From Balanoglossus misakiensis (lineage: Eukaryota; Animalia; Hemichordata), in contig CM082591.2 of NCBI GenBank assembly GCA_040954595.2, positions 11,177,309 to 11,241,308 on the forward strand: 64,000 nucleotides of DNA, read 5' to 3'. Every line of letters begins with the position of its first letter. Position 1 is the stretch's first letter. The position numbers were made by a program, and so were the translations under genes. The notes under the pieces are model-generated. The model searched no databases, was not told the origin of the DNA, and saw nothing but the letters and a program-made list of their open reading frames with translations. Positions 1 to 37,800 of this stretch are shown here, one piece after another.

Positions 1-71
1 AAATTGTTCTTCTGGTCTAACTTACATGAGTGAATAATAATTTAATGTTTTATATCTTGCATTTATTTCAG

Positions 72-2795
72 GAGTGTGAACATCGACAAAATCAAAAGAA
101 GACTGGTGAAGAGGAAGACAGAAGCAAGGTAATTGAAATGGTCTACAATCAATGCAAAGAAAATGCTGTCAGTTTGGGCCTTGAAATGATTAAAATGGTA
201 TTTCTGAATAAAATGTGTATTTTATTTTTATTTTATTTTCAGGACAAAGAGAAAATAAAAGAGTTGGAGGAAGAAATTGAGAGGCTGAAAAGGGAAATCG
301 GGGGGAGGTTTAGCACAAGGGATAAGAGGGTGGAAGCAATTAGGGAAATTGGTAAATTAGAAAATTTAGAAATTTACAGGCATGCAGATCTCCTCTGCCA
401 AAACCAAGACAGGTATTCCGTTCAAAATTTATCAGACATAGATTTACATAATCTATTGTCAGAACGGAATCCTGTCTTGGTTTCCTTTCTTGAGGAGATC
501 TGTATGCCAAATACTGGAATCCAAAATAACACTCAATATCTTGCCCATGCCGTTGAACTTGTTTATACTGCCAGGAATCCTAACTTTGTGAGTAGTTTTA
601 TTTCCGCAATTCAAGTTATTTTATTTAGTTTGACCAGAAGTCGCCTGGCAGTTGATCTCATGGGCCACGTAACAGCAGGCCCATGCTATGATGTTATTAA
701 CAATATTCTTTTTAAAGGTAATTTTGATTTTCCAGATGCACCTGAGGGGTTAGTTGAATTTTCTTTTGATAATGAACAACGTCTTTCCAAAAATTACATT
801 AACAGAAATGGTAATTCAGTTACTTTGGATATTTTTACTAACATTATTGCTTCTCAGCTGGACCCAGAATCATCACTGCAATATGATTCTGGGTTGAAGC
901 CAAGTCAGTGGCAGAAGGTTTCAGAGACAGATGTTTCCAATACAGAGGACAGCAAGTATGATGAGTTTGATTCAGTTGTCAAAGAGTCCATTGCTTCTTA
1001 TGTTGATAATTTAATTTTATCTTCTGTAGCCACTATCAATGTAGATAATGCACCACAGACTGACTATATTGACACATACTTACAACAAAAACAACATACT
1101 GACAGCATCGAGATTTGCCCTAAGTGTGGTTTCACCCACACTAAGGGCAAATCGAGAATTGCCAAGTGTCGAGGTTGTGGCATTTGGATGGGTAAGTATA
1201 GAAAGGAGCTGAAAAGAGAGAAGACATCAACTTTTATTTCACCGGGCAGAAGACAAATTAAAAAGAAGAAGAAGGGAACCATCTTGCATGAGTGTGTTGG
1301 TGAAGTAAAAGTTGATCACATGGGTAAGCAAACTACCAGAATTGTTAAAAAGCCCCCAAAACAAGCAAATAAAGCAAATATTTCTGTTATGTCCCCTATT
1401 TTTGTAAATCCTAATTGTGTCGAATCAGTGAAAGAAATTCTTAATCACATTGGTAAACTTGCAAAAATCAAACAATATTTTAATCATGTTGAGGGCAATG
1501 GAGATTATTGTACATATAGGGAATGGGTTATAATCAGGTGTGATGGCTTGCCATATGTAATTATCCGTAAAATTTTATCAGAAGATCATGAGGGAATATT
1601 TTCATGGGTTGCTTTAAGGACGGGTCTTTTACATGAAGAAATCAATGCAGTCAAATCATTTGTTTCTATGTATTGGGATGTAATTTACAGGGACTTTGCT
1701 TTATCTCAGGGATTCTCCTCAGGCAGATCTCTAGAATTTGTGAAGAAGTGTTCTGATCATCACATTTCATTTGACCTTCTTTGCAAATTCAGAGATTGTC
1801 TGTGGAGCGAATTGCTACATGAATTTCATGTGAGTAATCCCACTGCTGATGCATCCACCAGTTTGTTTCTTGGCTGGTTGAATGCAGCAGCAGTGACAGA
1901 CTCTCACATGAATTTCATGTACAATATTCTTCTACAACATTTACATGGAATTTTCCTCTTTCGACAGGGCACGCGCTTCAATTCACCCACTTACCTACGG
2001 GCTGGGCGGCGTCTCCTTCGCACCTTGTGGCACGGTCGGAATCACCCCACTTACCAACTGATTGACGTCTATGACGACACCGACCGTGCCCGGTATCCAC
2101 CAATACTTCTCCAAACTCTGGAGAAGTACGAGGCCATTTCAAGATCTGGCAGGCCTGATGCCCATCAAGGTGCGGACGCCGTCCTGGAGGAGTACAACAA
2201 AAACATCAAGGCCTGGGCTCCTCCAGTGCCCGATTCGGGTAAGTGGGTTGTCATCTGTAGCAGGCATGATGCCCTGGCCAGTCTGAGAAAGACAGTCTTC
2301 TCAGTCGTTAGCCTTGTAAACCCCGAGTCGTTGGAACGTAGCCGCCCAGGCTACTCTAACGACTTGACGGGTTTCAGGGGACGACTGAGACAGACATCTT
2401 ATGTCAAGTATCAGGCTGGTCGGTCTCCTATTACCATCTCAGGAGATGCTATGGATAGACACATTGGCAATTATAACATCAATGCCGAAGAAAGAAGACG
2501 TGCCCTGGTAAGTATCATCTGCCAAGGTAAGTATCCAGGCACTGGCAAAAAAAAAATACTATTCGTAACAGAAAACGAGAGAGAAGAAAGTGAAAGAGAA
2601 GAAAATAAAACAAATGCCACACTTCGACACGAATGCAACGACATAATTCACACACTACCGTTGACAGACAGAACATCACTGCATACACAACTACGACGGG
2701 CAACAAACAAAGCCAAGCTCCTGGAATTACTGCACAGTTTGCATGATTTACAAGGGGCTATTACAGAAGTGTTTGAATTTGAAATGCAACAGTAA
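72..2795 (+). CDS. Academ-superfamily (DUF6589-like) DDE transposase; spliced, 5' exons lie outside the window
   Basis: Motifs FSFDNEQ, IRCDGLPY, LRTGLLHEE and GADAVLEEYNK fit the DN / D / GxxH / DxxxE pattern of Academ transposases, with a CPKC-x-CRGC zinc ribbon. The ORF-track start at 30 is intronic: acceptor tttcag|72, exon 72-128, in-frame 114-nt GT-AG intron 129-242, long exon 243-2795. Confidence 0.7.
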   Translation, partial: ECEHRQNQKKTGEEEDRSKVIEMVYNQCKENAVSLGLEMIKMVFLNKMCILFLFYFQDKEKIKELEEEIERLKREIGGRFSTRDKRVEAIREIGKLENLEIYRHADLLCQNQDRYSVQNLSDIDLHNLLSERNPVLVSFLEEICMPNTGIQNNTQYLAHAVELVYTARNPNFVSSFISAIQVILFSLTRSRLAVDLMGHVTAGPCYDVINNILFKGNFDFPDAPEGLVEFSFDNEQRLSKNYINRNGNSVTLDIFTNIIASQLDPESSLQYDSGLKPSQWQKVSETDVSNTEDSKYDEFDSVVKESIASYVDNLILSSVATINVDNAPQTDYIDTYLQQKQHTDSIEICPKCGFTHTKGKSRIAKCRGCGIWMGKYRKELKREKTSTFISPGRRQIKKKKKGTILHECVGEVKVDHMGKQTTRIVKKPPKQANKANISVMSPIFVNPNCVESVKEILNHIGKLAKIKQYFNHVEGNGDYCTYREWVIIRCDGLPYVIIRKILSEDHEGIFSWVALRTGLLHEEINAVKSFVSMYWDVIYRDFALSQGFSSGRSLEFVKKCSDHHISFDLLCKFRDCLWSELLHEFHVSNPTADASTSLFLGWLNAAAVTDSHMNFMYNILLQHLHGIFLFRQGTRFNSPTYLRAGRRLLRTLWHGRNHPTYQLIDVYDDTDRARYPPILLQTLEKYEAISRSGRPDAHQGADAVLEEYNKNIKAWAPPVPDSGKWVVICSRHDALASLRKTVFSVVSLVNPESLERSRPGYSNDLTGFRGRLRQTSYVKYQAGRSPITISGDAMDRHIGNYNINAEERRRALVSIICQGKYPGTGKKKILFVTENEREESEREENKTNATLRHECNDIIHTLPLTDRTSLHTQLRRATNKAKLLELLHSLHDLQGAITEVFEFEMQQ

Positions 2796-3996: not shown

Positions 3997-4137
3997 CAGT
4001 GCTTCATCTAGGGGGGAGGGGGGATTCACCCCCTTGTTGACATGATAGCACCCCCTAGGAATTTGTCAAGGGGGGACCAATATTCTTGCAATGGGGGACA
4101 TATCCCCCCTGTTGATGCCATCCTAAATGAAACACTG
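3997..4137. mobile_element. Small MITE with CAG..CTG ends (hAT-like)
   Basis: Imperfect TIRs cagtgcttcatctagg / cctaaatgaaacactg. No clear TSD. Confidence 0.5.
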
Positions 4138-4668
4138 AAGTATGAGTTAAGACAATGAACTATACTCGGTGACTGAAGATATAACAGTATAACATCAAGA
4201 ACACCATGTGTACATGACAGATGTCCGGAATATCGTTTGTAAACCTACCACAATATAAAGCTCTTCGACCGTGTAGGGGAATTCAATTTGTAAACAGTAA
4301 ACATCACCGGCGGTTCAAGTTGCAGAATTTTCATTTGATTTCACCGTTTTACTGTCAGGTTATCTGGCCGATTCCCCCGATCCTTCTAGATCAATAAGTA
4401 ATTCATACACAAATACTAATTGTTCCCTACCTTGATAAAAAAGAACGTTTAAAAAATCCCGACTCCATCATGACGAAGTACATGTATCCAAGAGCATAAG
4501 CCAAAGGTCATTTGAGGTTAATTAATGCTGATGACCTCAAACCACAAACGCGAAACCCGTTCGTATGCGATAACAAACTAACAGTTGAAAGAACAACAAA
4601 ATAAATTTAAAAAATAATAAAATAATTACATCAAAACATCAAGTGATTTTTTTTTCAAACGGTATATG

Positions 4669-4707
4669 TCTTTCTGGAGGATGTGTGGCCCTGAAAAGGG
4701 CCGTTTG
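4669..4707 (-). terminator. Histone-type 3' stem-loop plus downstream element (HDE) of the HIRAN gene
   Basis: Minus strand reads CAAAC GGCCCT TTTC AGGGCC ACACA TCCT CCAGAAAGA. Stem-loop at 4687-4702, 53 nt after the stop codon. The HDE resembles sea-urchin CAAGAAAGA. Confidence 0.88.
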
Positions 4708-4755
4708 GTTTGGTTGCGGTGTGTACCGCCAGACGTAGACGGTGTCACCAGTAAT

Positions 4756-5148
4756 TCAGGCGATCACCGTCACATTGAAGCCCTTGCTCTCCACGAACGC
4801 CTTCACTCTTTGTAGGTCGCCTTCTTTCAGGTGAAATCCAACATTACACACCTGAACGACGCCGCATCGCCGAGAATGAAAGAAGGGACTTTCTTTTGGT
4901 TTGAGGAAATATACGGAATTTGGAGATAGAGCCGCATCGATCACTCTTGCGAGCACTTGAGCGGCATCCCTCTTCAAATGTCCGTATATTTCGCGGGCGC
5001 CTTCTTCATTGTCGACGATTGCGACGGCGTTCTGGTCGTATGGGTTGGATTTCTCCCGCAGAAGGCGATACCCAGCACCGACAGTAAGTGCACCTTTATA
5101 GCGGTGCATCCCCACTGCCAGTACTTGGTGTACGATAAGTGAAGGCAT
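4756..5148 (-). CDS. Intronless stand-alone HIRAN-domain protein (about 130 aa)
   Basis: VLAVGMHRY..YRLLREKSNPYDQNAVAI..IYGHLKRDAAQVLA matches the HIRAN signature (LxREPxNPYDxNAI..GYL). First in-frame ATG at 5148, stop at 4756-4758. Confidence 0.8.
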   Translation of the reverse strand: MPSLIVHQVLAVGMHRYKGALTVGAGYRLLREKSNPYDQNAVAIVDNEEGAREIYGHLKRDAAQVLARVIDAALSPNSVYFLKPKESPFFHSRRCGVVQVCNVGFHLKEGDLQRVKAFVESKGFNVTVIA

Positions 5149-5432
5149 TCTCTGTATTGTGACACGATGACTTGGTGATGCATGTGATGTGTTCGCTCGC
5201 CTGCTTTTTCGGTTGTGCGGGGCTTGTAGTGTCGCTGTCGTCAAAACTAGTGTAGGCGCCGAAATCAAAATTTATTATTTCACAAAAGCACTGGTGAAAA
5301 TTTTTCTTATTGACGCGGAAGCAAGTTTGACTCGTACTTTGTTGTTTTTAATTGACGGGATATCCCCAAACAGCGTATTTGACCCCAAAATTTACATTTG
5401 AAAAAAAAAGGTCGTGATTTTCATAACAAAGA

Positions 5433-5466
5433 GCGGGAAAAGACGTATTTCCGGGCACGTCATTGG
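5433..5466 (-). promoter_or_regulatory. Candidate E2F site (TTTCCCGC) and CCAAT box upstream of the HIRAN gene
   Basis: Plus-strand gcgggaaa at 5433-5440 and attgg at 5462-5466. Short motifs that could occur by chance. Confidence 0.3.
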
Positions 5467-6058
5467 TCAGATCGCGTTCTACATATTAATGATATGTTAA
5501 TTTTTATGCTAATAAGCAACTCCTAATATGGGTCATCGATGCGACTGTTTATTGCAACGTTAGTTTGTTTCTAGTGAATTGATTTTTTGTCTATTTTATA
5601 CTTTATCATGTTATGAAGACTCTCGAGAGCCACCAAGACATTAGCTTTGTACGTCAGTAGACAAAACTGTGAATGTGAAGCATTGAATGAAATGATCCGG
5701 AGACTGTCGCATATCCAGTTCGCTTTCAATTAACATAACAATTACTCTATCCAAATGAAATCTGCTTTGAACACAGGTATAGAAGTAAATGTAATTATGC
5801 AAATAAAGCATTGTGTATTTGTATTTTTGTTACGACAGGTGAGACTGAGTCCTGCCGTAGTTCTAGAACCCCCGGAGGTAGTTCTAGAACTACCCGGGAC
5901 TTGGTTTTCAACCTGTGGTTTTGTGTGAGACGGAGGTTCTCTCAGTGAATGACTTGTCTATTGAATAGTGTGACGTCACGATCGTGGTTTAAAAGAGATT
6001 ACAACATCCCTGTTGAGTGTCTTTGTACATTCATGTAATGAATAAGTAGCTGTACTAA

Positions 6059-9000
6059 TAGTGCGGTATGGTATGTCAAGAAAAACAGCTCCCGTAGGAT
6101 TTTTGTGCTAAAATTGATTTTTTTGCTGTTTTGGCTTCTATGGGGACCCAACTACCCGAAAATGATGGGGTGCAATTTTAAGGGCCCCTCCATCATATTT
6201 TTCTGGGGGGGGGGGTACTTCCGTTTCATGGTATGATGTGTATTCCCGTAGGATTTTTGTGCTAAAATTGATTTTCTTTGCTGTTTGGCTTCAATGGGGA
6301 CCCAACTACCTAAAAATCATGGGGTGCAATTTTTAGGGCCCCTCCATCAATTTTTTTTCGGGGGGTCTCTTCTGTGTTGGTCACTCAAGGATATTTCTTC
6401 ACCTATTTACTCTATCATCATGGGAATTTGGGCTACAATTAATTTGTTTTTGTTGTTTTTGCTTTGGAGGGGACCCACCTGGCCAAAAATAATCGGGTGC
6501 AAATTATAGGGCCCCTCCATCATTTTTTATTGGGGGGGGGACACTTTCATTTTGGCCACTCCGAAGTTGTTTGTCGGCCTATTTACTCCCTTCTCATAGA
6601 ATATTTTGCTAAAAATATTATTTTTCTTTGATGTTTTGGTTTCAATGGGGCTCCACCAGAACTAAAATGATGGGGTTCAAATTTTTGGAACCTTCCATCA
6701 TGTCTTTGGGGGGGGGGGTAATCATTTCTGTTTTGGCTACCCTGAAGGTACTTGTTCACCTATTTACTATAAGGTTAGTATTGTCGTGGTATTTCTTGCA
6801 ATTTGGTTTGCTCTTTTGGCTTGAATGCAGACTGACTGCCGAAAAGTGATGGTGTGCTAAATGTTGGACCCCTTTACCACATATTTTTGGGGAGGGGGGG
6901 GGGGTTCTATATTTGTTTTCGCCAACCCGTTGTAACAGTTGTTTTTTAATCTTAGATTTTTTCGTTTATTCTAAATTTAGTATACTAAGGTAATTTAAAA
7001 CCCCTTTTAATGTAATAAAGTACATAAGGAAGTACCACGGAAGGTGCAATAAACAACCCAAGAAGCATAACGATTCTTTTCTGATATCTTGGTATTCTCA
7101 ATCATCATTTTCACAAAAACCAGTTATGTTTGATCTACTCATCGTCAGTGTCGTTATTTTCAAGAACATTTTCCCTTAATTGGTTTTCAGTCTCCACCAT
7201 AGCATTTACAGAGGGGAGTACATGGTAAATCATTCTTTGAGCAACTGCAACGTCCCCTACAACCTGCTTTGCAGCCACATTTGATAAGCTCTAGTACTGC
7301 CTTTGGTGCAGGGAGAGCAAGACATTTTACTGGATAAAACACGCCATTCTCCGATTTCCACCCATTCTTTTCGATTGGTGGAAGTTCAGGACAATTTGTT
7401 GCGTATGATTTATCCCTCATTGTGATGAAGGGGTGGCACCCTTTTCACAGATCACGCAAATCTTGTTTTTATCTGACATATTAATTCTGTAGTTTATTGC
7501 AAAATGTCCAAATAGCTATCGATCTGGAACGTAAAACGCGGCTTACGGTGCTAAGAAAATAGCCAATATGTATTTAGTAATAAAACTGAGAAGTAGTTCA
7601 CAGATTTTCAGTAGTATTGAGCTACAAAATGAGCCAAATTTGATATTGTTAATGTTTACCAAAACAAGTTTTAGAAGTAAGACATAATTCAAGGGCTTTT
7701 TACAGCACTATTACGCTATCGGCATGAAAATTTTGAAAATACTACTTTTAAATAGACAATACTTCAACTGATATGTACTTCACAGGCTTTATTTACGACA
7801 GTATTTAACTTTGAAATGAGTTCAACTGAATATCGTTTTGATACCCCAAGAAAAAAGTGTTGAACTAAAACATACTTGAGAGTTTTTGCACAGACTGATA
7901 TCGGTGAGACTTTTAGTACAATGGTAAATATCTCAGACATTGATTGTGCTACGAAAGAATAAAACACTTTTAACGAAAAAGTTCACATCTACACAGACTT
8001 TCACTAATTGCCCTGGGAAAGAGAAAAAAGAGTAACCCTAATATATTATACTATTTGGTATAGCCTAGTATACTATACTTTTGTAAACCATAGAAAACAT
8101 AAGTGTGGTGATGAGTTGGGTGGCGGTCCAAGGTGAGGGGAGAAGTCCAAACCAGAGAGATATTTGTGGTTGATTTGTTAGTGTCATAATGCAACTAAGT
8201 ATATATTTATAAAACTAAGATAGCGCTGTAGTATATGTGACAACTGATATGTTTACCCCATAAACCGTCTAATATTTGTGATTCCCAAAATGTGGAGAGG
8301 CCCAAAAATTTGACCTCCCTCATTTTTGAGCAGTTAGGTCCCCATAGAAGTTAAAAAAAGGAAATTGGAAGAAATCCTTTACAAATACACATGTCACACT
8401 ATGAAGGTTAGATCAATGAACAAATATCTCCGCGGCTGCTAAAACTAAAGTGACCCCCCCCCACCCTGCAAGAAAATGTGATGGAGGGGTCCAACAAATT
8501 GATTTCCATCATTTTGGGGATGTTTATTCATCATTCAAACCAAAACAGCAAATAAAACAAATAACTATTAGCAAAAACTCCTACGAGAATACACGAAATA
8601 GGTGAACAAATACCGTTAAGATTGTTGAAATGGAAGTACCCCCCCCCCACAAATGTAATAGAGGGGCCCTAAAATTTGCATGTGATCTTTTGCGACCAGG
8701 TGGGTCCCCATTTAAGTCAAAACAGCAAAAAAAATTCTTTAGCAGAATATTCTACGAAAATGGAGTAGATAGGTGAATAAATATCTTCGGGGAGGCCAAA
8801 ACAGGAGTGACCCCCCCCCCCCCGAAAAAATATGTTGGAGGGGCCCTAAAAATTTCACCCCATCATTTTCGGATAGTTGGGTCCCCATTGAAGCCACAAC
8901 AGCAAAAAATTCAATTTTAGCACAAAAATCCTACGGGAATACACATCATACCACAAAACGGAAGTACCCCCCCCCCAGAAAAATATGATGTAGGGGCCCT

Positions 9001-9121
9001 TAAAATTGCACCCCTTCATTTTCGGGTAGTTGGGTCCCCATAGAAGCCAAAACAGCAAAAAAACAATTTTAGCACAAAAATCCTACGGGAGCTGTTTTTC
9101 TTGACATACCATACCGCACTA
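6059..9121 (-). mobile_element. Non-autonomous Academ-like element with long minisatellite-built TIRs
   Basis: Ends tagtgcggtatggtatgtcaagaaaaacagctcccgtagg and its exact reverse complement (TAG..CTA). Arms at about 6059-6900 and 8280-9121 are built of roughly 160-170 bp diverged subrepeats. Internal CXC relic. No clean TSD. Confidence 0.7.
7187..7428 (-). pseudogene. C-terminal CXC (tesmin/TSO1-like) cysteine cluster relic of an Academ-type protein
   Basis: NGW..PAPKAVLELIKCGCKAGCRGRCSCSKNDLPCTPLCKC. 5'-truncated. Confidence 0.7.
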
Positions 9122-9618
9122 GAACAAACAACTTCGGAGTGGCCAAAATGAAAGTGCCCCCCCCCCCCCAATAAAAAATGATGGAGGGGCCCTATAATTT
9201 GCACCCGATTATTTTTGGCCAGGTGGGTCCCCTCCAAAGCAAAAACAACAAAAACAAATTAATTGTAGCCCAAATTCCCATGATGATAGAGTAAAAAGGT
9301 GAAGAAATATCCTCGAGTGACCAACACAGAAGAGACCCCCCGAAAAAAAATTGATGGAGGGGCCCTAAAAATTGCACCCCATGATTTTTAGGTAGTTGGG
9401 TCCCCATTGAAGCCAAACAGCAAAAAAAATCAATTTTAGCACAAAAATCCTACGGGAATACACATCATACCACGAAACGGAAGTACCCCCCCCCCCCAGA
9501 AAAATATGATGGAGGGGCCCTTAAAATTGCATCCCATCATTTTCGGGTAGTTGGGTCCCCATAGAAGCCAAAACAGCAAAAAAATCAATTTTAGCACAAA
9601 AATCCTACGGGAATACAT
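9122..9618 (-). repeat. Extra copy of the same TIR subrepeat array beyond the terminus
   Basis: Near-identical reverse complement of about 6090-6575. Confidence 0.8.
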
Positions 9619-10122
9619 CTTTAAGCTTAGTCAAGGCTGAGAACAGAGGTTGAAATGCCTACATTTGCAATACATGTATTCTAAAAGCGTGTGAGATTTT
9701 GGTGCGTTTCGTCGTGTAGACAATAACAAACATGTTGCAATGGCTGATATTTTAGGCTCGTATCAGAGGCACATACTTTGCTGTACACAGGATCTGCGCG
9801 ATATGCAACTAGATCAATGCTGTATATGTGAATACGTTATCGTTCATTGAAATTTAGCCGTAGAGTTGAAGCATAATTACCTACTCTGCTGAATACAAAA
9901 CATGATAAGCTCGAATTTAAAGGCGGAACGCTCGGTAGGGCCCTACCGAGCAAAAATCAATAAAATGTGGGCGTGGCTAACGCTCTGACGCCACTATATA
10001 TTGTTACAACAATTGACCTCAAATGGGCATCCCGCGCCCGCCAAAAGCAAACACATTTCTATACCCACGCGATCCAGCTAGTTCTTACGTACCCGCGGAA
10101 CGCGTTGTCAGCTGAATCTATC

Positions 10123-10495
10123 ATGTCGACACGAATTATCCAGATAGCGGTCACTGAAGAGCAGGAGAAAGCACTGGCAATTTTCTCTGCCGAGCTTTTG
10201 GTCATCGACCGGCGGGGGCACATAAGTTCACCTGCTGCGACCGCGGGGGTTATTACCGTGCGTGGTATCGGCTACCGGCGAGTTTGATGCGGGGGACACT
10301 GCCGGTCTATCGGATGCAGCAGCCGTCGAAGTAAACACCGTGTCCATGAGCACATCGGCTTCCGGAGATTCAGTCAACTCCTGTGAATTTTGTTTTTGTT
10401 CGCAATGTGTTACCACACATAGGCAGTCTTGGCTAGTCCGTGGTCTCTACCCGAATTTACCCGGTGTTTCTTACGTTGGGCATAAATGGCACTGA
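10123..10495 (+). pseudogene. Frameshifted, probably internally deleted Cys-rich transposon accessory gene (possibly KolX / P2X7-C-terminal-like)
   Basis: MSTRIIQIAVTEEQEKALAIF from ATG 10123, then a shift to the frame encoding CEFCFCSQCVTTHRQSWL and VRGLYPNLPGVSYVGHKWH*. TATATA near 9995. Family call is from recall only. Confidence 0.45.
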
Positions 10496-10532
10496 TGAGG
10501 CTTTCCCCTCTTCACTTTGTACGGTTGGTACA

Positions 10533-10574
10533 CAAACGGTCCTTTTCAGGACCAACACAATTTCCAAGAAGAGA
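10533..10574 (+). terminator. Histone-type 3' stem-loop plus HDE
   Basis: CAAAC GGTCCT TTTC AGGACC AACAC AATTTC CAAGAAGAGA. Stem-loop at 10538-10553, 42 nt after the TGA at 10493-10495. Confidence 0.88.
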
Positions 10575-13428: not shown

Positions 13429-15107
13429 AACTCCAGCAATAACAGAATTATATGATACGGTACAAGTACCGGAGGCTTGATGGGGGGCCCTCTAAAGACA
13501 GAAGCTATTAAGATACGGTCAGATTGATAATCTACGCTGAATTCTACTAATGAATGATTGTCCCCTATCGTCATGTAAACAGTCTGATTTGTGCGGAACC
13601 ATCACCAGATACAATATGCAGCACGATAAACATGTATGGCGGCCCATGGCTGCCTCTGGTAAAATGCATAAATATATCTATAGTTTGTGTGTTTTTGTTT
13701 GTGTTTTTGTTTGTTTGTGTGTTTTTGTTTGAAAAAAAAATGAAAAGAAATTAAAATCTAAACAAAATATAAATATAAATAAAATAAAAACGATATTAAA
13801 AACAAAATTGAATAAAAAAAAATTGAAAAGAAAAGAAAACAATAAAATGAAAAGAAAATGAAAAGAAATTAAAAACAAAACAAAATAAAAATATAAATAA
13901 AAATAAAATAAAAGCGAAATTAAAAAAAAAATGAATAAAAAAAATTGAAAAGAAAAGAAAAGAAAATGAAATGAAAATAAATAAAAAAAAGTAAAAAAAT
14001 AAATAAAATAAAAACGAAATTAAAAACAAAATTGAATTTAAAAAAATGAAAAGAAAAGAAAACAAAATAAAATGAAAAGAAAATGAAAAGAAAAGAAAAC
14101 AAAATAAAATGAAAAGAAAATGAAAAGAAAAAAAAAATTTAAAAGTGAAATGAAATGAAATGAAAATTTTTTCACCCATGGACTACAGCTGCCATAGTCC
14201 ATGGACAAAGGCTGCCGTTAGCCTACAGCTGCCACAGTATACAACAATGCATTTCGGTTTTCTTGGAAACAACATGGCGGCCTTCCGAACAAATGCGTGG
14301 ATGGAGGACCTCACATGAACAAGGTTGGGCCGGCCGGGGGCTGTCATCATCGCCTGTCTCGTAAACTAGCCGAGCTTAGGAAATGCTGGATGATGTAACT
14401 GCAAAATTTGAGAACATATTGAGGTAGGTGCAGTGGCATAAAATGTTGAGTTTTCGAGTACATCACTCATCATATATTTTTAAAGAAGGTCCTTTCATTT
14501 GCACTTTACATCATAAAATAACGATGATTTTTGGAACATGGCGGATTGCAGCAGTGTTTTCCTGTCATCTGTATCATGTGTATATGCATCGTAAAATAGT
14601 GATATTAAATATTACTTCGCAGATCACGGATCATATACAAGGACTACGGCGTGGACAATGTTTAAGGAGGCAATGAAGGAGAAGAGAGCCGGGACAAGGA
14701 AGGCGAGAAAAGATCGCGGAGACGTACTTGGTTAGTTATATGCGTTGTGTGTGAATACTTTCATCCAATCACCGTGACGCGCCATGGCAGTCACACGGGA
14801 CATAACACGATCAGAACCTGGCAATCGTCCGACCCACACTACTCAAAACCAGTGGCGAGGTGGTTTCTTCTATTTTTACATGTAACTCTATGGGGAAATT
14901 AGCACAAATGTACCCAACCACGCCATTTCTAGTCTGCTCATTACATTCTTACACAGAATGTTTATTTAAAAAGGGCCATGTCCTATCCTGGAACCTAAGT
15001 TGATGTACCTGTATACAGTGCTCATCAAATGAGAAAACTGGAGTGAGGGTCATCTGGTGGACTAAAACTTGTCTGAATATTTGTTCTTGTATTTGAATTT
15101 TTCACAG

Positions 15108-15304
15108 GTTGGGAAGTCAGTGATGATGAATTGCAAGAGGTGGCCATTCAAGCTGGTATTCTTGACATTGGAATAGACTTCCTTGAACCAGACTTCCGTA
15201 GAGAATGTGAACGTTTAATACCATTTCCAAGAGTTGTCAAGCCGTGTGAATGTAGTGATGCTTTCCACTATCTGAAGGATAATTATAGCACACACCCACG
15301 CTGA
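15108..15304 (+). pseudogene. Terminal exon relic, probably of the element's integrase-type transposase
   Basis: Acceptor ttttcacag| followed by an open frame (G)WEVSDDELQEVAIQAGILD..FRRECERLIPFP..CSDAFHYLKDNY to TGA. Confidence 0.45.
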
Positions 15305-15415
15305 AAATGTCTGCAAAAATGTCAAACATGCTGTGACAGAACGCAAAAAGTGTTTTGAAAACATGGTTCGCAATCTCATTATGATCACTTCAGTCCAGTT
15401 TGACTAACTGCTCTG

Positions 15416-16083
15416 AATGCTTTACGAAGCCCACCAGAAGCAATGGTTTTTTGTCTTTACATGTTATTTTATATCAAATGAAAATAGACTGATCATTTTT
15501 GAAGATTTTTCATTGATGACTTTGCCTAGCAGTAAGTGATAGAAGTGGTTACATTACTTGCATTTCATTTGTCTTAAGTTGTAAATTTATTTTCTCAGTT
15601 TTTATTGAAATAAAATTCATGAAAAGAATTAAGAGGGTATACTCTGAATCAAAGATGTTTCTGAAATGTACCTGAAAATTGCTGTTGGAAACTTTCAGTG
15701 CCAGGTAGAAAAATTCAACTTTTACCATCAATCATCATCCTTTTTTTATAATGCTTTACGAAGCCCACCAGAAGCAATGGTTTTTTGTCTTTACATGTTA
15801 TTTTATATCAAATGAAAATAGACTGATCATTTTTGAAGATTTTTCATTGATGACTTTGCCTAGCAGTAAGTGATAGAAGTGGTTACATTACTTGCATTTC
15901 ATTTGTCTTAAGTTGTAAATTTATTTTCTCAGTTTTTATTGAAATAAAATTCATGAAAAGAATTAAGAGGGTATACTCTGAATCAAAGATGTTTCTGAAA
16001 TGTACCTGAAAATTGCTGTTGGAAACTTTCAGTGCCAGGTAGAAAAATTCAACTTTTACCATCAATCATCATCCTTTTTTTAT
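15416..16083. repeat. Apparently exact 334-bp tandem duplication
   Basis: Units 15416-15749 and 15750-16083. Identical ORF translations at 15549 and 15883. Confidence 0.92.
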
Positions 16084-16946
16084 CTTGTGTCAATATGATA
16101 TGCATAGTAAACCCACAAGACTGTGTACATACAATAGACTACTTTCATGACCCCTACATGACCTTCACATCCTGCCAATTTGAGTGTAACTCTGGAAGTG
16201 AATGATACTGTTGAATTTGTGGTCTACCCCACGCTAGAACAAAAATATAAATTTTGTCTGCTATAAATGGATGAATCTCGTATAATGTAGAATGGTGCAT
16301 GATGTCATACCAACAAATTACCAGGATGTAAGGTCACTCTGGGGTCATCGATGTGGCCTATTAGCTATGCTTATGTATTTTTAAAACAACAGCACTTAAT
16401 TTGATGAACTGTGGGTACAGATTTCACACAAAACTGAGTAATTTAGCAAAGTCATGCATAACTAATTGATCATTTGCATATTTTTTAAAATTTATCAAAA
16501 CACAGTCTATTCACTTCATGGATCTGGTGGTTGATTCTCCATGATGATTATATCAACATACATATGGCTATACTCACAGGTCACATGTCAATAAAACAAC
16601 AGCATATAGGAAGATTTTGGTGCTCTGGTTCAAACACACATTTTATTACAAACAAGGAACTTGCAAAAGTTACCAAAATACAGTTTAGTTTAGTAAACAA
16701 GCATCTGAATGGTTCCTGCACAACTCAAAACTTTTATAATATCAAATTACTAATGCAGCAATGATGTGCATCAGTAAGATATTTTTTCACCACCCAATCA
16801 GAAGTAGCAAATTTAGGAGTTTGACTGACTGACTGCTCTGAATGCTTCACGAAACCCACCAGAACCAAATGGTTCTTTGTCTATAGTAAACTCCACAAAT
16901 TACTAATGCAGCAATGATGTGCAAACACCAACGAAGGTAAAATGCT

Positions 16947-17276
16947 TTGTCAACAATAGAGGCCACTAACCAGACTACTGAAGAGCATACCAAAAAAGTT
17001 GTACAGATGCACTCCTTAGCCAAAAATTTTGCCGAACGACTTGAACATCATCTCAAAAAGAAAAATGTTTTGCATCAGTATGGTGAAACACTTAAGTACA
17101 ATGACATTTTCCTAGGGAAAATGCAAACAGCAGAATTTGTAACTGTTGAAGAGTATATCAGTGGTGACTTTGTCAAATACACCAACAATGATGGTTCAAT
17201 TGGTAAATCAAATTCTGATTTACGCAATAAAGCTGAGAGCCTTGCACACTTGAAACTCTCTTGGACCAATCCGTGA
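16947..17276 (+). pseudogene. Alpha-kinase (eEF2K/MHCK-like) catalytic domain fragment
   Basis: VQMHSLAKNFA..FVTVEEYISGDFVKYTNNDG..KAESLAH. Lacks the N-lobe and the C-terminal DxQG/LxDP motifs. Confidence 0.75.
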
Positions 17277-20200
17277 GTACTTCTGGGCTTTTCCTGTCAC
17301 TTCTGTTGACAGCCTCTGGACAACAATTTGTTCACCTAAAATGACAGAAATGAATGATATAGCATTGTCAACATTATTGCACAATTGTTAGAAAATTGTG
17401 AGAAGCTATATGGCTATATATAGCTTATCCCAGCAACTTACAAACATAACCACAAAACAGAATCTCTTTAGGAAGACTTATTTTTTTCTTCACAGTCAAA
17501 TATTGTGCAAAACACTAACAACATACATGTCAGCCCACTCTTGAAGTTAGCCTTTTAAATTTGAAAATGATCCACTACATTTTAAATTACACTACATTCC
17601 TGCTTTTACAGGCTCTGGCTACACTGTGATTGGTCACAAGTTTTCATGTAATGAGCAGACTAGAAATGGCATGGTTGGGTACATTTGTGCTAATTTCCCA
17701 TAGAGTTACATGTAAAAATAGAAGAAACCACCTCGCCACTGGTTTTGAGTAGTGTGGGTCGGACGATTGCCAGGTTCTGATCGTGTTATGTCCCGTGTGA
17801 CTGCCATGGCGCGTCACGGTGATTGGATGAAAGTATTCACACACAACGCATATAACTAACCAAGTACGTCTCCGCGATCTTTTCTCGTCTTCCTTTTCCC
17901 GGCTCTCTTCTCCTTCATTGCCTCCTTAAACGTTGTCCACGCCGTAGTCATTGTATATGATCCGTGAGCTGCGAAGTAATATTTAATATCACTATTTTAC
18001 GATGCATATACACATGATACAGATGACAGGAAAACACTGCTGCAATCCGCCATGTTCCAAAAATCATCGTTATTTTATGATGTAAAGTGCAAATGAAAGG
18101 ACCTTCTTTAAAAATATATGATGAGTGATGTACTCGAAAACTCAACATTTTATGCCACTGCACCTACCTCAATATGTTCTCAAATTTTGCAGTTACATCA
18201 TCCAGCATTTCCTAAGCTCGGCTAGTTTACGAGACAGGCGATGATGACAGCCCCTGGCCGGCCCAACCTTGTTCATGTGAGGTCCTCCATCCACGCATTT
18301 GTTCGGAAGGCCGCCATGTTGTTTCCAAGAAAACCGAAATGCATTGTTGTATACTGTGGCAGCTGTAGGCTAACGGCAGCCTTCGTCCATGGACTATGGC
18401 AGCTGTAGTCCATGGGTGAAAAAATTTTCATTTCATTTCATTTCACTTTAAAAAAATTTTTTTTTTTTTTTACTTTTTTTTTCTTTTCATTTTCTTTTCA
18501 TTTTATTTTGTTTTCTTTTCTTTTCATTTTTTTTTCATTTTATTTTGTTTTCTTTTCTTTTCATTTTTTTAAATTCAATTTTGTTTTTAATTTCGTTTTT
18601 ATTTTATTTATTTTTTACTTTTTTTATTTCTTTTCATTTTCTTTTCATTTTCTTTTCTTTTCTTTTCAATTTTTTTTAATTCAATTTTGTTTTTAATTTC
18701 GTTTTTATTTTATTTTTATTTATATTTTTATTTATATTTTTATTTTGTTTTGTTTTTAATTTCTTTTCATTTTCTTTTCATTTTATTGTTTTCTTTTCTT
18801 TTCAATTTTTTTTATTCAATTTTGTTTTTAATATCGTTTTTATTTTATTTATATTTATATTTTGTTTTGTTTTTAATTTCTTTTCAAACAAAAACACACA
18901 AACAAACAAAAACACAAACAAAAACACACAAACTATAGATATATTTATGCATTTTAGCATTGGCAGCCACGAGCCGCCATAAACATGTAGGGAGCGTTCA
19001 CTTACTGTATGGGTGAGTCGGGTTGTAATAGGCCCGTCTCGGAGGGTGAGGCACTTTTTTAAATTTACACAATAGTAAATTTGACACGTACATTTTGCTC
19101 AAAACATTTACAACCTTTAAGGTGAGTGTATTTTTCCCATTATTGAACAACGCAGATCAGTAAAGGATTGCATCTTACGTGACCACGCACATTAAATCCC
19201 TCAGACACACCCTTACTGTAATAAATGAAAACTCTCTAATTACGAGTACACTCAACAATGCCCTTCAACAGTTCTGTCACGCCATCCAGGCCATGTTTCT
19301 AAAATTGTATTTAAGTCCGAACTTGAATGCGTTTTTCAACAATAACAATGCCCGATACACAAACACATCACTTATTTACAGAAAACTTGGTAGGTTGGGA
19401 GGCTACAGGGCTGGAATCGAACACGAAAATGTAGTTGATACACAAAGCAAACATAACCAGATGGTCCTTTAAAACGTCCCGTTCCTGTCGAACTCATAAA
19501 TTCTCTCGATGAATCGGAAATCACATTGCGATATTGGTCAGAGTCTATTCTAGGAATGAGTGTCACCAAAGATGCTTGCAATAATGATTGGATTGTCTCT
19601 AGGATCGGAGCCGCAAGCTGCAGTGAGGCCGAAGGCTGAAACCTCGGTCATAAAAAAAAGAATCTTTCCCCTTTCTTACTACAACAACAACAACAACTAA
19701 AAGTACAGTTCCTGAATTCGGCGCGCCCTGTCAACACTGCTTTATACGAAAGACGTGACACGCATAACTGCAAGTGCCTGAGGATGTCACGTAATTAGTG
19801 AGACAGTAAATTAACTTGGCAACGGCGCAGCATCACTGGTTGTATATGGCAACAGTAACCATTTCAAGACACTAAATGGAATTCGTTTCGTTCAGACCAA
19901 AATAAAATGACGATCCGAACAGCCAGGAAAGTCGATATCGAGCCATCTTTCTCGTTCAACAATTTTGGCCGTGCAAATCATTGTATAAATAGTCACACTC
20001 GGGGAATAATACAACATGTTAGCCATTTAAACTTAAAAATAAGACCTTCCGGTTTTATTATTTTTAATCAAACATCTTGTACACGAGCATTGCATAGCAT
20101 ATGTAGTTGGGTACGTGCGTGAACGATGCACGTGACTGAGGGTATTAATTAAATGTATTGTTTGGGCAGGCATACAGTCATTAACAGCGCTGCGCAGCAT

Positions 20201-20344: not shown

Positions 20345-23300
20345 ATGGCCACTGAAGAGGAATCAAAGTCTCTTCTGACAAACATTTTTCGATCTGTAAA
20401 TTCGGAATATCCCGATCCTATTGAAACCAAGATCACAGGTAGGTACAGGACGATTACGTTTTCCGATCAGACAGGGTCAAGAATGTCTCTAAATATACAC
20501 GGTGTTTAGCGAGTATACAATACATATTCCAATGTATTATGAATATATAAAAATTGCCTTGTTTGTCAAGACCGTATCGTTAGATAAGAAATCAGACATT
20601 TAGCGAATTAAATGAGCTTTGATAAAAAAACGTTTTAATGCACTTGAACTGTGTAGTACGCATCACCAGACCATATGGCGATGTGTTTCTTACATAAGTC
20701 ATTATTTTTCGTACTGTAAAAGCCCCGCTGATGTAATAAAAAGGCATAATGATGTACATTGTACTGACAACGGTGACTTCAACCAAAAGCGCAGCGTGAT
20801 GCAATTGTGTAAAAGGAAACGGTGTGTTGTATGCCACACCCTAAGCATCTATACTGGCAGCAAAGGGATCTGCATAGAATAAAGGTGGAAATAATAAACA
20901 CTGTCGTGAAATAGCTCGCATGCAAGCAATGCTGGCCTTGAGACAGTTTATTTTATTGAAAATATCCGTATGAGTTCAGTGGGTCTGATAAATAGTCTGC
21001 GATACACATATTCATGGACATGCACTATCATAATGTATACGGTCCCCAACAATATCCACAGTTCCCATGACGAGCTGTCATCTAACGTCAGATAATTACA
21101 TGGTCATTCTAATACCAATAACCATATTATACACATGTATTTCAGGGAAATTACCGGACTGGCTGAACGGCAGCTTTCTTCGAAACGGGCCTGGATTATT
21201 CGAAGTGGGTGATCAGTCCTACAACCACGTCTTCGATGGCCTGGCTTTATTACATAGATTTAACATCAAGAATGGTCAAATCACATATCAAAGTCGATTT
21301 CTACGCAGTGATGTGTACAAAGACAACATGAAGGCAAATCGAATATTGCACCATGAATTCGGAACTCTGTCCTACCCCGATCCATGTCGCAGTATTTTCC
21401 ATCGCCTCTTCTCCTACTTCCAACCACCGAAACTTGAAGATAATTGTAACATAAACTGGTTGACTCTTGGTGATGACCTGTATGTCTGTACGGAGTCTCA
21501 ATACCTTAGAAAGGTTGACCCTGTTACCTTGGAAACCAGCGAAAAGGCAAGTGTTAAGATTCATGTTGTCGGAAATCCGTGTATTTCTATTGGCCAGTCA
21601 CGAACAAGAAGTCGTACAGCATAAATTGCAAAAAGACTTATTAGAGAGGTTATCAAGTGTGCATGTATTGTCCATTTCCCGATTAAAGGGACAAAGTCTC
21701 TCTCTTGCTGCCCTTTTTTCCATTAATCATGTTTGATATAAGACACCGTTTATATTGATGTACATGTGGATATACAGTGAATCAACTTTCAACCACACAC
21801 AACTTCCATCCCACTTGTAGACACGATAGTGAATTTGACACGTCAATTGACACGTACGGTCTCTGTAGAAGAGTGATGGCGCTGTTTCCCGTAAAACGCT
21901 GACATTATTTTGTGCTTGTGTTACAGCTCGACTACTCAAAGTACATCGCAGTAAACACAGCTTCAGCACATCCTCACACGCTACCAGATGGCACCGTTTA
22001 CAACATTGGATATTCCTTCGGTATTAATACAAGGTACAATATCATTAAAATAAACCCACCTAGTAAAGGTAAGTTGCCACGACAACAACAAGTCCTCGAA
22101 ATGAAACGCAGAGTTTCTCGGTCGACAAAACACCAATTACATGATCTAGAAATGTTAGGATTTGTTTAAAATTTTCATGCTCTGAATATCACTGCTAATC
22201 GCAAGATTTGGTAACAGAGAAGTTGGGCCACCATAGAAGAATAGAAGAAAGGGGAAAGGGAACAAGATTTGCTTCTACAAACATATACATAATCTTTGAA
22301 ACACAAATACTAACATTATTTTGAAACTATCAACTGTATCTTACTTGAGTTCTTACACAATTTCTTAATTTTATTTTATTTATTTATTATTTAAACCAGG
22401 ATTTAAAATGCATCCCATAGAACAGCTGAAATGTAGTCAGCATAACGGCACTGACAGAAAAACAGCAACAAAAGACAATCAAAAACAACACAAGGCAACA
22501 CGACAAACAGACAAAAGACAGTAATAGTTAATAGTTTTATCTTCACTCTGATCTATTTTGAAAGCTGCCTAAAAGGATTATTATTTCACCTCTTCTCAGG
22601 AAATGACGCCTTACTCAACGCCTCCATAATATGCTCAATTCCAACGCGACATCGCTTGTATCCGTCTTACTTTCACAGTTTTGCAATCACCGACAACTTT
22701 ATTGTGTTTCTTGAACAACCTTTATTCGTAAATGTCCTGAAAATCGCATCAGCGAAATTCAACGGAAAGGCCTTCGACAACGCACTTGAATTCGACCCAA
22801 AAAGCCATGCGGTCTTTTACGTTATTGATCGTAATACGGGCCAAATGGCGTCATCAACCAAATACGTCACAGAGGGATTTTTCTGCTTTCATCACGTGAA
22901 TGCATATGAAGATGGCGATTTTATCGTTGTGGACTTGTCTGCTCACACAGACATCAGAATTATACAATCGACTCTCTTTGAAAATCTCCGAACGAACAAG
23001 AAACCAATCCTCAACATAGCGGTCAGGCGTTATACAATACCAGTAAAAATTCCGAAGGTAATCAAAGGGACAAAGTCGACTTGTGACATTATTTATTGGA
23101 TTTGGCATTTTGTTTTGATAGATTGTTTATGTTGTTCTGCTCACCTAAAAGCCCACGATCATTTTATGCGCATGTGAATATTAAATTGCGCGTGTACAAA
23201 CATTACGTCGAATATAAATTTTCTGCAAATTTTGCTTTCAACGCATTCAAATAGTGGACTACCTTCGCTGTCTTCCATATATCATGCGCACTGTATAAGT

Positions 23301-34816: not shown

Positions 34817-37800
34817 TTATACGTAGGCCGATCTTCCACTCTTCCTGATATTGCAACATAACAGCACTGAAAATATCATGCCAAGTATCTGTAAAGAGAA
34901 AATGACAAGATTCGGGTTGCAAAAAGACCAGAAAGTAAATATTAGTACTATTTTATACAATTTGGCAGTTTGGTTTTCAAAAACGGTTTGCGTTTTTCGA
35001 CAATAGGCTGTTGACGTAATTTCAAATAATGTCTTTCTGGACAATCTGCCTATACTAGATAAAACCAAGCGGTTACCACGCATGCGTGTGCACATCCAAA
35101 TGTATGCAGAAGGACCTACGAATTTGCGAAAAATTATTAATATGACAACTATCGTGTGAACTAAATGATGTAATGCATGGAGTGATCAATTGCAATATTG
35201 TTTTGTAATACCTTCAAATAATTATTACTGGTATAATTTGTATTTCCAATAAGGATATACCTACCGGTTAATTTATATTTAAAGCATGGTTGTGGAAACT
35301 ATCAAATATGGGCTATTGAAGTAATTTCAAACAATGTCTTTGGGGAAAACGCTCTTATTCGATCAAACTCGACGGTTACCACGGCAACGTGTTGGACCTC
35401 CAACTGTATGTTGGCGAATATATATCAATCAGTATCCAGGATATCTTTATGAAGATTGAAGCATTTTTTTCTCTCAGAAGCATCTTATGTGCATCATACA
35501 AAATCTGACAGACAGTTATGTTTAAGATATTCACAATATGACACGGTATTTGGTATATTTGGTAATGGTTACAACTGTGATATCCTGATTGATAATTAAC
35601 AGAAATGAAAAATTCTTGGCATCTTAAAATCTCTACTGGTACCTAAAATACAAATTGACAGTAGAACCGGGTTAACATACAGAACAGTGACAGAACAATC
35701 GTTGTCACCGTTGCTTCCTGATAACAAAAGTGGAATAAAATTGTTATAACATCTTCTTACCTGGATTAGTCCTACAGCAATGCTAACACCGCCAATGATG
35801 TACAAATTTCGTTCCAGAAACGTAAACACTGCCAGTGTACAACCCTGAAGACAACAACAAATCGAGGAATTACCATTTTCTCAAATCCTTACAACTTGGA
35901 TTCGTTTTTGGTAAAAAGAAGAGCTCTACGCAGTGTGCAACCGTCAGTCATATGAGGGCGCTCCGGCAATGCCAATGTAAAGGGTCAAAGGCACATCGGA
36001 GCGCCCGCACACGACTCAATCTTTCAGTCTATGGTTTACTATGAACAACGCATTTAATCAATGTTTAACTAAACCAGGTGAAAAATAGATAAAGAACGCC
36101 TTATTACAATGTACATCATAGCACCAAATAATGTTACTTTCATCACAAACTTGTGAACTATACCGTGAAGTAAATACATGAAATTATGCAATAACCGCTC
36201 CCCCGCCTGCGGCTCGTGCATATAGGTCTTGAATGGTGCTATATATCGTGGTATACCTGCCCTCGGCAGGGGTTACAATGCACTGAGAAATTCAATTGCG
36301 AATTTAGGCCCAACCCCTTGGGTGTAATTTGGGGCGCCCTCTATGTAGTGGGGCTTCCCGCCTTCCGCAGAGAAGTTGCTACATTTGTAGGGCTTCCGCC
36401 ATCTTGCAGAGTTACTGGAGCAGTCGCTCGCTCAACACAACTTCTCCCGAAACCCGTCTTTTTCGACGCTACATCATCACAATATGTCCTATCACTCAGA
36501 TAACAAAACTCTCCCACGGTCCGACAGGCGGACTCCGAACTGCTCTGGCTGCAAGCAAGCAGTAAAAGGGCATCGCGCTCTTGGATTGCAGCCAGGCCCA
36601 AACTGCACAAGCGTGCCCCAACCACAAGGCACAGATGGAAGCTCTGCCATTCCCACCCCATCCGTCGTTGTCGAACAGACTGTCGACTCATCCCAGTTCG
36701 AAGACCTACAAGCCAGACAGGCCGAACTGTTACAGGAAAAGCAATTCCTACTGCAGAAACGAGAGCAGCGTGTATTACAGACCTGCATCTCAGAACTAGA
36801 ACACGAAGTCGCCACCCTCCGAGGGCAGGATGTCACCACAAGTCCCACGCAACTCCCTCCATCGACCCCATTTTCGTCGGGCAACGGCGGTCCACCAACA
36901 CTGGACACCCCTCGTCGAAACCCAGCGGCCAATCAAGCAGTCGACGCACAACTCTCTCATATCGTGAATTCCGCATGGCCGACGTCCATCGGACAGTTTA
37001 CTCGTGCTGAATGGCCGATCGCCCATATGTCACAAGGTAAGCCAGGAAAGCATCCTCGTGACACTCAAGCCCCCAGCTCCGCAGACGAATCCAAAGTGAA
37101 ACGGCCACATTTGCGCCTACCTCGCAAAACATTCGACAACTTAACCATCCCACAACTGGTCAAAGGCGAATTAGAAATAATCAACTCCGTCTACCTGCCC
37201 ATCTCGTCTGAGGAACGCGCTCCCAGATTACTGCATCTCCAGAACTTAATGAGACTCGCTCATAAGCACGATTGGATAGACGTACTGAATTTCCACGGTA
37301 CCATCTTAGAAAAGATACAAAGCGCAGAACTACGTTGGCAAGACTGCTTCGACCGTTATGAAAAAGAACTTCTCTCACCCGACACCCTGAAATCCGTCAA
37401 ACAAGGCACTGATCGCGGCAAGAAACAGGCCGTCAAGAAGAGCGATATTTGTTACAAGTACAACTTCCAGACATGCGAATGGGGCGACAAGTGTTTTAGA
37501 CGTTACATCTGATATCGCTGTTTCAAAATTAACAACACAGCCACACCTCACAGCGGCAAAGACTGCCACCTCGCCACCAGCAAGAAGAATGACACCCCCA
37601 AATAGTAATACACCTATTTCGGATTGAACTTCAGTCGTTGGGTTGCATCCCACGTTCACAGAGACTACATTGTGTTCTCTCTCTTCCTCACAGAACATTC
37701 CGTACACTTCTGCATCGGAAGAATTTTCTAGCGCTCGGTTACCGTCCAACGCTAACATTCGGGCTTCCTGGTCCCATACACCACGCCCTTCATGTATCTC

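Follow-up and report, generated by a model that had tools for sequence, protein, structure and literature searches.

The window analyzed here, a stretch of 64,000 nucleotides from the hemichordate Balanoglossus misakiensis, carries two small genes on opposite strands, each followed by a hairpin of the type found at histone mRNA ends. Gene 1, at 4756..5148 on the minus strand, is an intact, intronless open reading frame of 130 amino acids that encodes a stand-alone HIRAN domain (Pfam PF08797, 45.9 bits against a cut-off of 24.7, E 5.1e-12). Gene 2, at 10123..10495 on the plus strand, is a broken KolX-like (probably ballast-fold) accessory gene of the Kolobok type. The original prediction described two intronless reading frames. 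This holds for gene 1, but gene 2 is frameshifted in its 5' third, has an apparent N-terminus in another frame with a weak match only, and is missing about 65 family positions near 10435, where the profile jumps from 101 to 167. It is a pseudogene, a decayed fragment and not an intact ORF. The C-terminus of the family and its stop codon are kept, and because these last residues and the stop are retained, hairpin 2 follows the gene's real 3' end; since gene 2 is dead, that hairpin is a relic of a formerly intact element. Between the two genes, at 6059..9620, lies an element with long inverted repeats and subterminal repeats of about 155-190 nt, whose arms pair at 98% (6198-6540 with 9161-9503) and at 99% (6090-6215 with 9487-9612).

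Stem-loop 1 (4687..4702, minus strand) is found 53 nt 3' of the HIRAN stop codon, with a predicted RNA end at about 4682, and stem-loop 2 (10538..10553, plus strand) 42 nt 3' of the gene 2 stop codon, with a predicted RNA end at about 10558. CAAAC flanks are present at both, and a purine-rich box starts 10 and 11 nt 3' of stems 1 and 2, respectively. Downstream element 1 (CAGAAAGA at 4669-4676) occupies, with an extension common to element 2, positions 4657..4677 of the minus strand, and downstream element 2 (CAAGAAGAGA) lies at 10565..10574 on the plus strand. The hairpins, flanks, boxes, and distances originally described for this locus are thereby confirmed, and the two hairpins are the only strict histone-type matches in all 64,000 bases, both strands, where an order-3 Markov model expects 0.007. 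Both fold as predicted, stem-loop 1 with a z of -4.2 over a 71-nt stretch. A scan with Rfam model RF00032 (Histone3), suggested as a check, gave 33.7 bits for stem-loop 1 (E 6.6e-7) and 31.7 bits for stem-loop 2 (E 3.7e-6); both scores fall slightly below the gathering score of 34, so that a scan at gathering level reports neither. Two strict matches against 0.007 expected, plus the Rfam scores, exclude a chance origin of the two hairpins.

In a description of the histone 3' end (bioRxiv 10.64898/2026.10.14.759114), SLBP binds the hairpin, U7 pairs with the box, and CPSF73 cuts five bases past the stem; the third loop position, U3, is named as conserved, and the distance from stop codon to signal is given as 25-60 nt. 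The window distances, measured to the 26-nt element, are 48 and 37 nt, within that range. The two loci share with the metazoan histone 3' end the 6-bp stem, the 4-nt U-rich loop, the AC-rich flanks, and the purine box 10-12 nt further on, as well as the placement of the signal shortly after the stop codon of a short intronless gene. They differ from replication-dependent histone genes in what is encoded: HIRAN and KolX-like proteins, not histones. As had been stated from the letters alone, no histone gene is recognized nearby; none of the 98 frames of at least 25 amino acids in 4140-6080 and 9620-11400 matches a histone family, a result that also speaks against the hairpins being remnants of histone pseudogenes, an outcome raised beforehand as damaging to the proposal. 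Searches of viral contigs with the hairpin patterns returned 0 and 2 matches. Taken together, the features support the view that both hairpins are genuine histone-type stem-loops with downstream elements, attached to non-histone genes.

Stems 1 and 2 do differ by one C-G/U-A swap, as claimed, but 62 of 500 shuffles match that, and the swap is not significant by itself; a covariation check across seven sequences found one two-sided change, no more than shuffles give. The wider DNA around the two hairpins had been described as looking unrelated. The neighborhoods of the two genes have a single significant match, a 52-nt block at the 3' ends with 77% identity that reaches from the 5' flank to some 30 nt past the stem.

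The HIRAN gene lies in repeated DNA

Gene 1 has two full-length relatives of similar length, P0001 (70%) and P0002 (56%), and the Atlas clusters closest to it consist of stand-alone HIRAN proteins from bacteria, viruses, and cnidarians; a search of viral contigs for HIRAN relatives found none. HIRAN domains of HLTF and Rad5 bind 3' DNA ends at replication forks. Gene 1 resembles these domains and the known stand-alone HIRAN proteins in scoring above the Pfam PF08797 cut-off, and differs from them in that it stands alone in an animal, sits in repeated DNA, and carries a histone-type end. No AATAAA or ATTAAA occurs within 616 nt 3' of the gene. Upstream, at 5433..5466 on the minus strand, are candidate promoter motifs, a CCAAT box and TTTCCCGC, the latter seen once against 0.05 expected from shuffles; a comparable site, TTTGGCGG, lies upstream of gene 2 at 10038..10045 on the minus strand (one site against 0.07 expected). 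Both are weak, E2F-like motifs. Such promoter sites occur in none of six hairpin-bearing relatives of gene 2 and in one of 16 other relatives; the sites at both window genes are a weak lead, not conserved among the relatives of gene 2.

For one sample, contigs from three DNA runs were compared with 4632-6080. They place the HIRAN gene inside repeated DNA at 4491..5990, limits that are approximate, the left one lying outside the stretch compared; contig depth does not equal copy number. A contig over 4685-5034 shows a single difference from the window at a depth of 245, with flanking bins at 9-72. A deeper contig (721) spans 5023-5227 and then runs into letters resembling 4491-4520 (27 of 30, by eye); it is an internally deleted derivative that has lost the hairpin and the greater part of the HIRAN ORF. 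Loose contig ends at 5023 and 5243 mark modules held in common by copies with different neighbors, and to the right of 5243 the repeated DNA probably consists of several nested repeats. This pattern is consistent with a family of repeats, some members of which are deleted. A further deep contig from the same sample (run X3, record 17) matches 4660-4703 with five differences and is unlike the window upstream of that stretch; possibly it represents a histone gene.

Searches found no Kolobok transposase in the window, no terminal repeat pair around either gene, and no convincing termini for gene 1. The notion of a single element carrying genes 1 and 2 is not supported, terminal-repeat searches having returned only low-complexity or weak pairs. 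Gene 1 is repeated, and it is likely to be cargo of a mobile element. The prediction that the two genes are transposon-borne is borne out through the family of gene 2, described below as a Kolobok accessory family, and for the HIRAN gene it extends as far as the repetition of its DNA.

The family of gene 2 and its hairpins

With the fragment of gene 2 as query, a word-based search of proteins returned nothing and an Atlas search gave no match above 0.82; viral contigs contained no member of the family. A full-library protein search identified 51 relatives, mostly of about 200 amino acids, that match in two stretches; 48 of them were aligned, and show CxxCxCxPC, N..R..Y..FW, and a tail of the form REIMPxC..VR..YPNP..Y.GH.W. 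PDB searches by Foldseek and by sequence were blank for the family. The predicted model of one member (P0003, pLDDT 76.7) placed rat P2X7 (6u9v, residues 471-594) at the top of 48,161 chains; its Z of 4.2 (rmsd 4.4 over 80 aligned residues) is low, and the next chain scored 3.0. The Pfam domain P2RX7_C (PF20478) was reached weakly, below its cut-off, by one of ten family proteins (E 0.005). KolX is described, in PMC9587614, as the ballast-fold accessory protein of Kolobok transposons of the Kol0 lineage. We name the present family, whose modeled member has the P2X7 ballast as its best, low-scoring fold match, KolX-like. It differs from seven-Cys KolX in having fewer cysteines and in its YPNP..GH.W tail, which has no match in the text supplements of that paper.

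A census with a degenerate protein-tail pattern, blind to the hairpin, collected 58 metagenome loci and one genome locus, all 59 of which match the family profile. A related transposase is encoded in 27 of the 59, head-to-head in 22, including six of the seven hairpin loci described below; the transposase queries were taken from hairpin loci and their ORFs pass PF20700, which 13 of 44 proteins scanned match above cut-off. This transposase is a DDE enzyme with C/DxxH, and its motifs look, by eye, like those given for Kolobok_1_OwFu and Kolobok_16_CGi in the PMC9587614 supplement. TTAA-flanked AG..CT ends were found at two of the 59 loci (L019 and L028), most contigs being too short; neither of these loci with complete termini has a hairpin. 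Two hairpin copies, L002 and L044, are alike over about 790 nt and diverge exactly after TTAA, which is preceded by GT and not YY, and the point at which they part looks as expected of separate insertions. In common with KolX-bearing Kolobok elements, the relatives of gene 2 have a DDE transposase with DxxH and a small second gene, along with TTAA sites and RR..YY ends; the window copy differs in being broken and in having no transposase. We regard the family, on these comparisons, as an accessory gene of DNA transposons of the Kolobok group.

A strict hairpin follows the stop codon by 14-24 nt, a gap below the histone range, in seven of the 59 family loci, with AAAGAG exactly 12 nt further on; the 191,535 bases of the 59 loci contain no other strict hairpin, whichever strand is read. 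The seven represent five distinct elements and, belonging to one accession series, are counted as one lineage; L009, L028, and L045 of the same series have no hairpin. Rfam scores them at 30.5-41.4 bits, six of seven above cut-off, and scored none of 11 other family loci. With a relaxed consensus, seven loci have zero or one mismatch, nine have three, and 43 have at least four; two of the loci have less than 90 nt 3' of the stop. Across the window and the relatives, the hairpin stands directly behind the stop codon in nine of nine cases.

With the stem as anchor, the five elements show an identity of 0.96 for the stem-loop, 80% for the five bases that follow it, and 1.00 for AAAGAG at +13..+18; the ACC flank is conserved as well. 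The values fall to 0.37 ahead of the stem, 0.39 from stem to box, and 0.28 past the box. In all ten element pairs, 48-82% of the four-fold codon sites differ (17-37 sites per pair). Conservation of stem-loop and box against nearly saturated silent sites points to selection; recent copying of a block is disfavored because the spacers would have been kept too. Loop changes affect position 2, with U1 and U3 kept. The hairpin is dispensable for the family, since 52 of the 59 loci are without it. Absence from other copies had been named in advance as evidence against the proposal; most of the family does behave that way, but five elements keep the stem at 96% and the box at 100%.

Origins of the signal and competing explanations

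In a tree of family loci the five hairpin elements form one branch, and the window copy falls elsewhere, near loci without a hairpin. An AU test rejects a single clade of the window copy plus the hairpin elements (p=0.019), with the reservations that the trees were quick ones under a simple model (50 rows, ten loci being excluded as short or identical; 29 rows for the AU test), that the window row fills 38% of the tree columns, and that the same AU setting wrongly rejected five of 71 true clades in the tool's trials. Because the AU test separates the window copy, and because the HIRAN gene is unrelated, the histone-type signal was likely gained more than once; alternatively, there may have been a single early gain and many losses. 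Repeated adoption by DNA transposons, as first proposed, keeps this likely plurality of gains, set against the 52 of 59 family loci that have no hairpin.

The explanation we find the most probable, with fair though not high confidence from sequence comparison, is that both are small non-histone genes with histone-type ends whose messages would probably be bound by SLBP and cut through U7, gene 2 being a broken Kolobok accessory gene and gene 1 likely mobile cargo. The strongest competitor, which we judge unlikely, holds that the hairpin is selected and bound by SLBP, and that the messages are mostly polyadenylated downstream, or that the signal is no more than a compact terminator, unconnected with timing by the cell cycle or the germ line. 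It gains from the AATAAA found within 350 nt 3' of the hairpin in six of six loci checked, from the short stop-to-stem gaps, from most family members being without a hairpin, and from SLBP-dependent polyadenylated maternal histone mRNAs reported in PMC11997800. The constant 12-nt spacing and invariant AAAGAG, however, fit pairing with U7, not SLBP binding alone, and the HIRAN gene has no polyadenylation signal in the 616 nt noted above.

There is still less probability, in our estimate, that gene 1 belongs to a multigene family of the host, or is a domesticated gene, with a histone-type end and is no transposon cargo, and that the two genes adjoin by chance in repeat-rich DNA. Neither termini nor a transposase are linked to this gene, and its near-identical repeated copies could be tandem or dispersed duplicates; the deeper, internally deleted derivative and the modules with different neighbors at 5023 and 5243 are nonetheless typical of non-autonomous elements. 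Least probable is that the signals are functionless, being neutral pieces of histone 3' ends that mobile DNA picked up, or else histone pseudogene remnants: the likeness of the two window ends and the contig matching 4660-4703, possibly a histone gene, make copying from host histone genes a plausible origin, and gene 2 is dead, but the nearby frames encode no histone domain, the five elements keep stem and box between near-random spacers on both sides, and the hairpin comes right after the stop every time.

A proposed route for accessory messages and its significance

Under the explanation we prefer, in which these non-histone messages use the histone pathway, SLBP would bind the hairpin of messages of the gene 1 and gene 2 type, the U7 snRNP would pair with the purine box, and CPSF73 would cut about 5 nt 3' of the stem, leaving a message without poly(A) that would be degraded at the end of S phase. 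Such messages would be timed as histone messages are, to S phase or to storage in the oocyte, and the benefit may be that accessory proteins are made while forks exist, or reach the germ line and eggs. The transposase gene of these elements seems to contain an intron and lacks a hairpin, so that only the accessory gene would take this route. The wider proposition, that in many invertebrates the SLBP/U7 pathway is not confined to histones, and that DNA transposons of unrelated kinds have adopted the histone 3' cassette more than once to produce non-polyadenylated accessory mRNAs (KolX-like, HIRAN) that peak in S phase or are stored in eggs, is tentative, and we would not yet place it ahead of its denial.

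According to PMC4604434, no cellular mRNAs but those for histones are known to be non-polyadenylated, and HeLa cells yielded no true SLBP target other than histone messages; an oocyte-specific SLBP is reported for zebrafish in PMC6239174. The word "histone" has no occurrence in the main text of PMC9587614. In a literature search, with most subscription journals and Repbase reports outside its range, no description of a non-histone or transposon gene with a histone-type end turned up, and no report linking HIRAN with transposons was found. Transposon accessory genes with a conserved, fully spaced signal are named, testable counter-examples to the histone-only rule. If the proposal is true, poly(A)-selected RNA-seq misses a class of transposon transcripts, and the histone-type end offers a handle on the job of KolX; DNA transposons could time their proteins to replication or oogenesis, and transposition would be coupled to replication.

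Repeat elements, a putative transposase and a host gene in the window

The HIRAN gene lies tail to tail with a 916-aa frame (window positions 45-2795, plus strand), the end of which is 1.9 kb away. The frame's D, D, GxxH and E motifs are retained in its relatives, and a Ptychodera flava protein is 70% alike to part of it. A Pfam scan of the frame found nothing above cut-off; the frame looks like a putative Academ-type DDE transposase.

Positions 3997-4138 hold a palindromic element of 142 nt; its ends read CA..TG, and no target-site duplication is apparent around it. Besides the long-inverted-repeat element at 6059-9620, another of this type spans 13680-18950; its inverted repeats are very long (973 nt, 89%), and its interior contains an exact 300-nt direct repeat. 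Exons of a host gene, an RPE65-family carotenoid oxygenase, occupy 21034-23174 (plus strand). Nested retroelement remains, presumably DIRS-like, lie at 36391-46434; a reverse transcriptase and a CCCH finger were identified there, and an integrase SAM-like domain matched weakly.

Loci from bacterial and viral records

An animal-type Kolobok element was found at 1176-4571 of contig L059. This contig is catalogued as part of a bacterial metagenome-assembled genome, where the element's presence probably reflects host contamination.

L061 is a small viral contig with two converging ORFs, Rep-like and capsid-like by their motifs. In the short gap between them, about 88 nt past the capsid-like stop, lies a histone-type hairpin (1238-1253, minus strand) scoring 28.5 bits against the Rfam Histone3 model, RF00032. 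The hairpin pattern had two matches in the viral contig collection from which L061 came, which might be about chance level.

Additional hairpins in 3' untranslated regions

Shortly before the main stem, folding placed a small 5-bp hairpin in the 3' UTR of the HIRAN gene (4712-4726, minus strand) and another in that of gene 2, the broken Kolobok accessory gene (10519-10533, plus strand). Both 3' UTRs also share GGTACACA; neither this sequence nor the extra hairpin was seen in five related hairpin-bearing elements.

Eight accessory-gene loci (L006, L017, L020, L027, L033, L035, L036 and L052) form one near-identical subfamily with an imperfect hairpin, differing from the histone consensus by three mismatches. 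It lies 19-20 nt after the stop codon, the site of true hairpins elsewhere in the family. An Rfam search of three members returned no match, and the imperfect hairpin could be a decayed signal or a product of chance.
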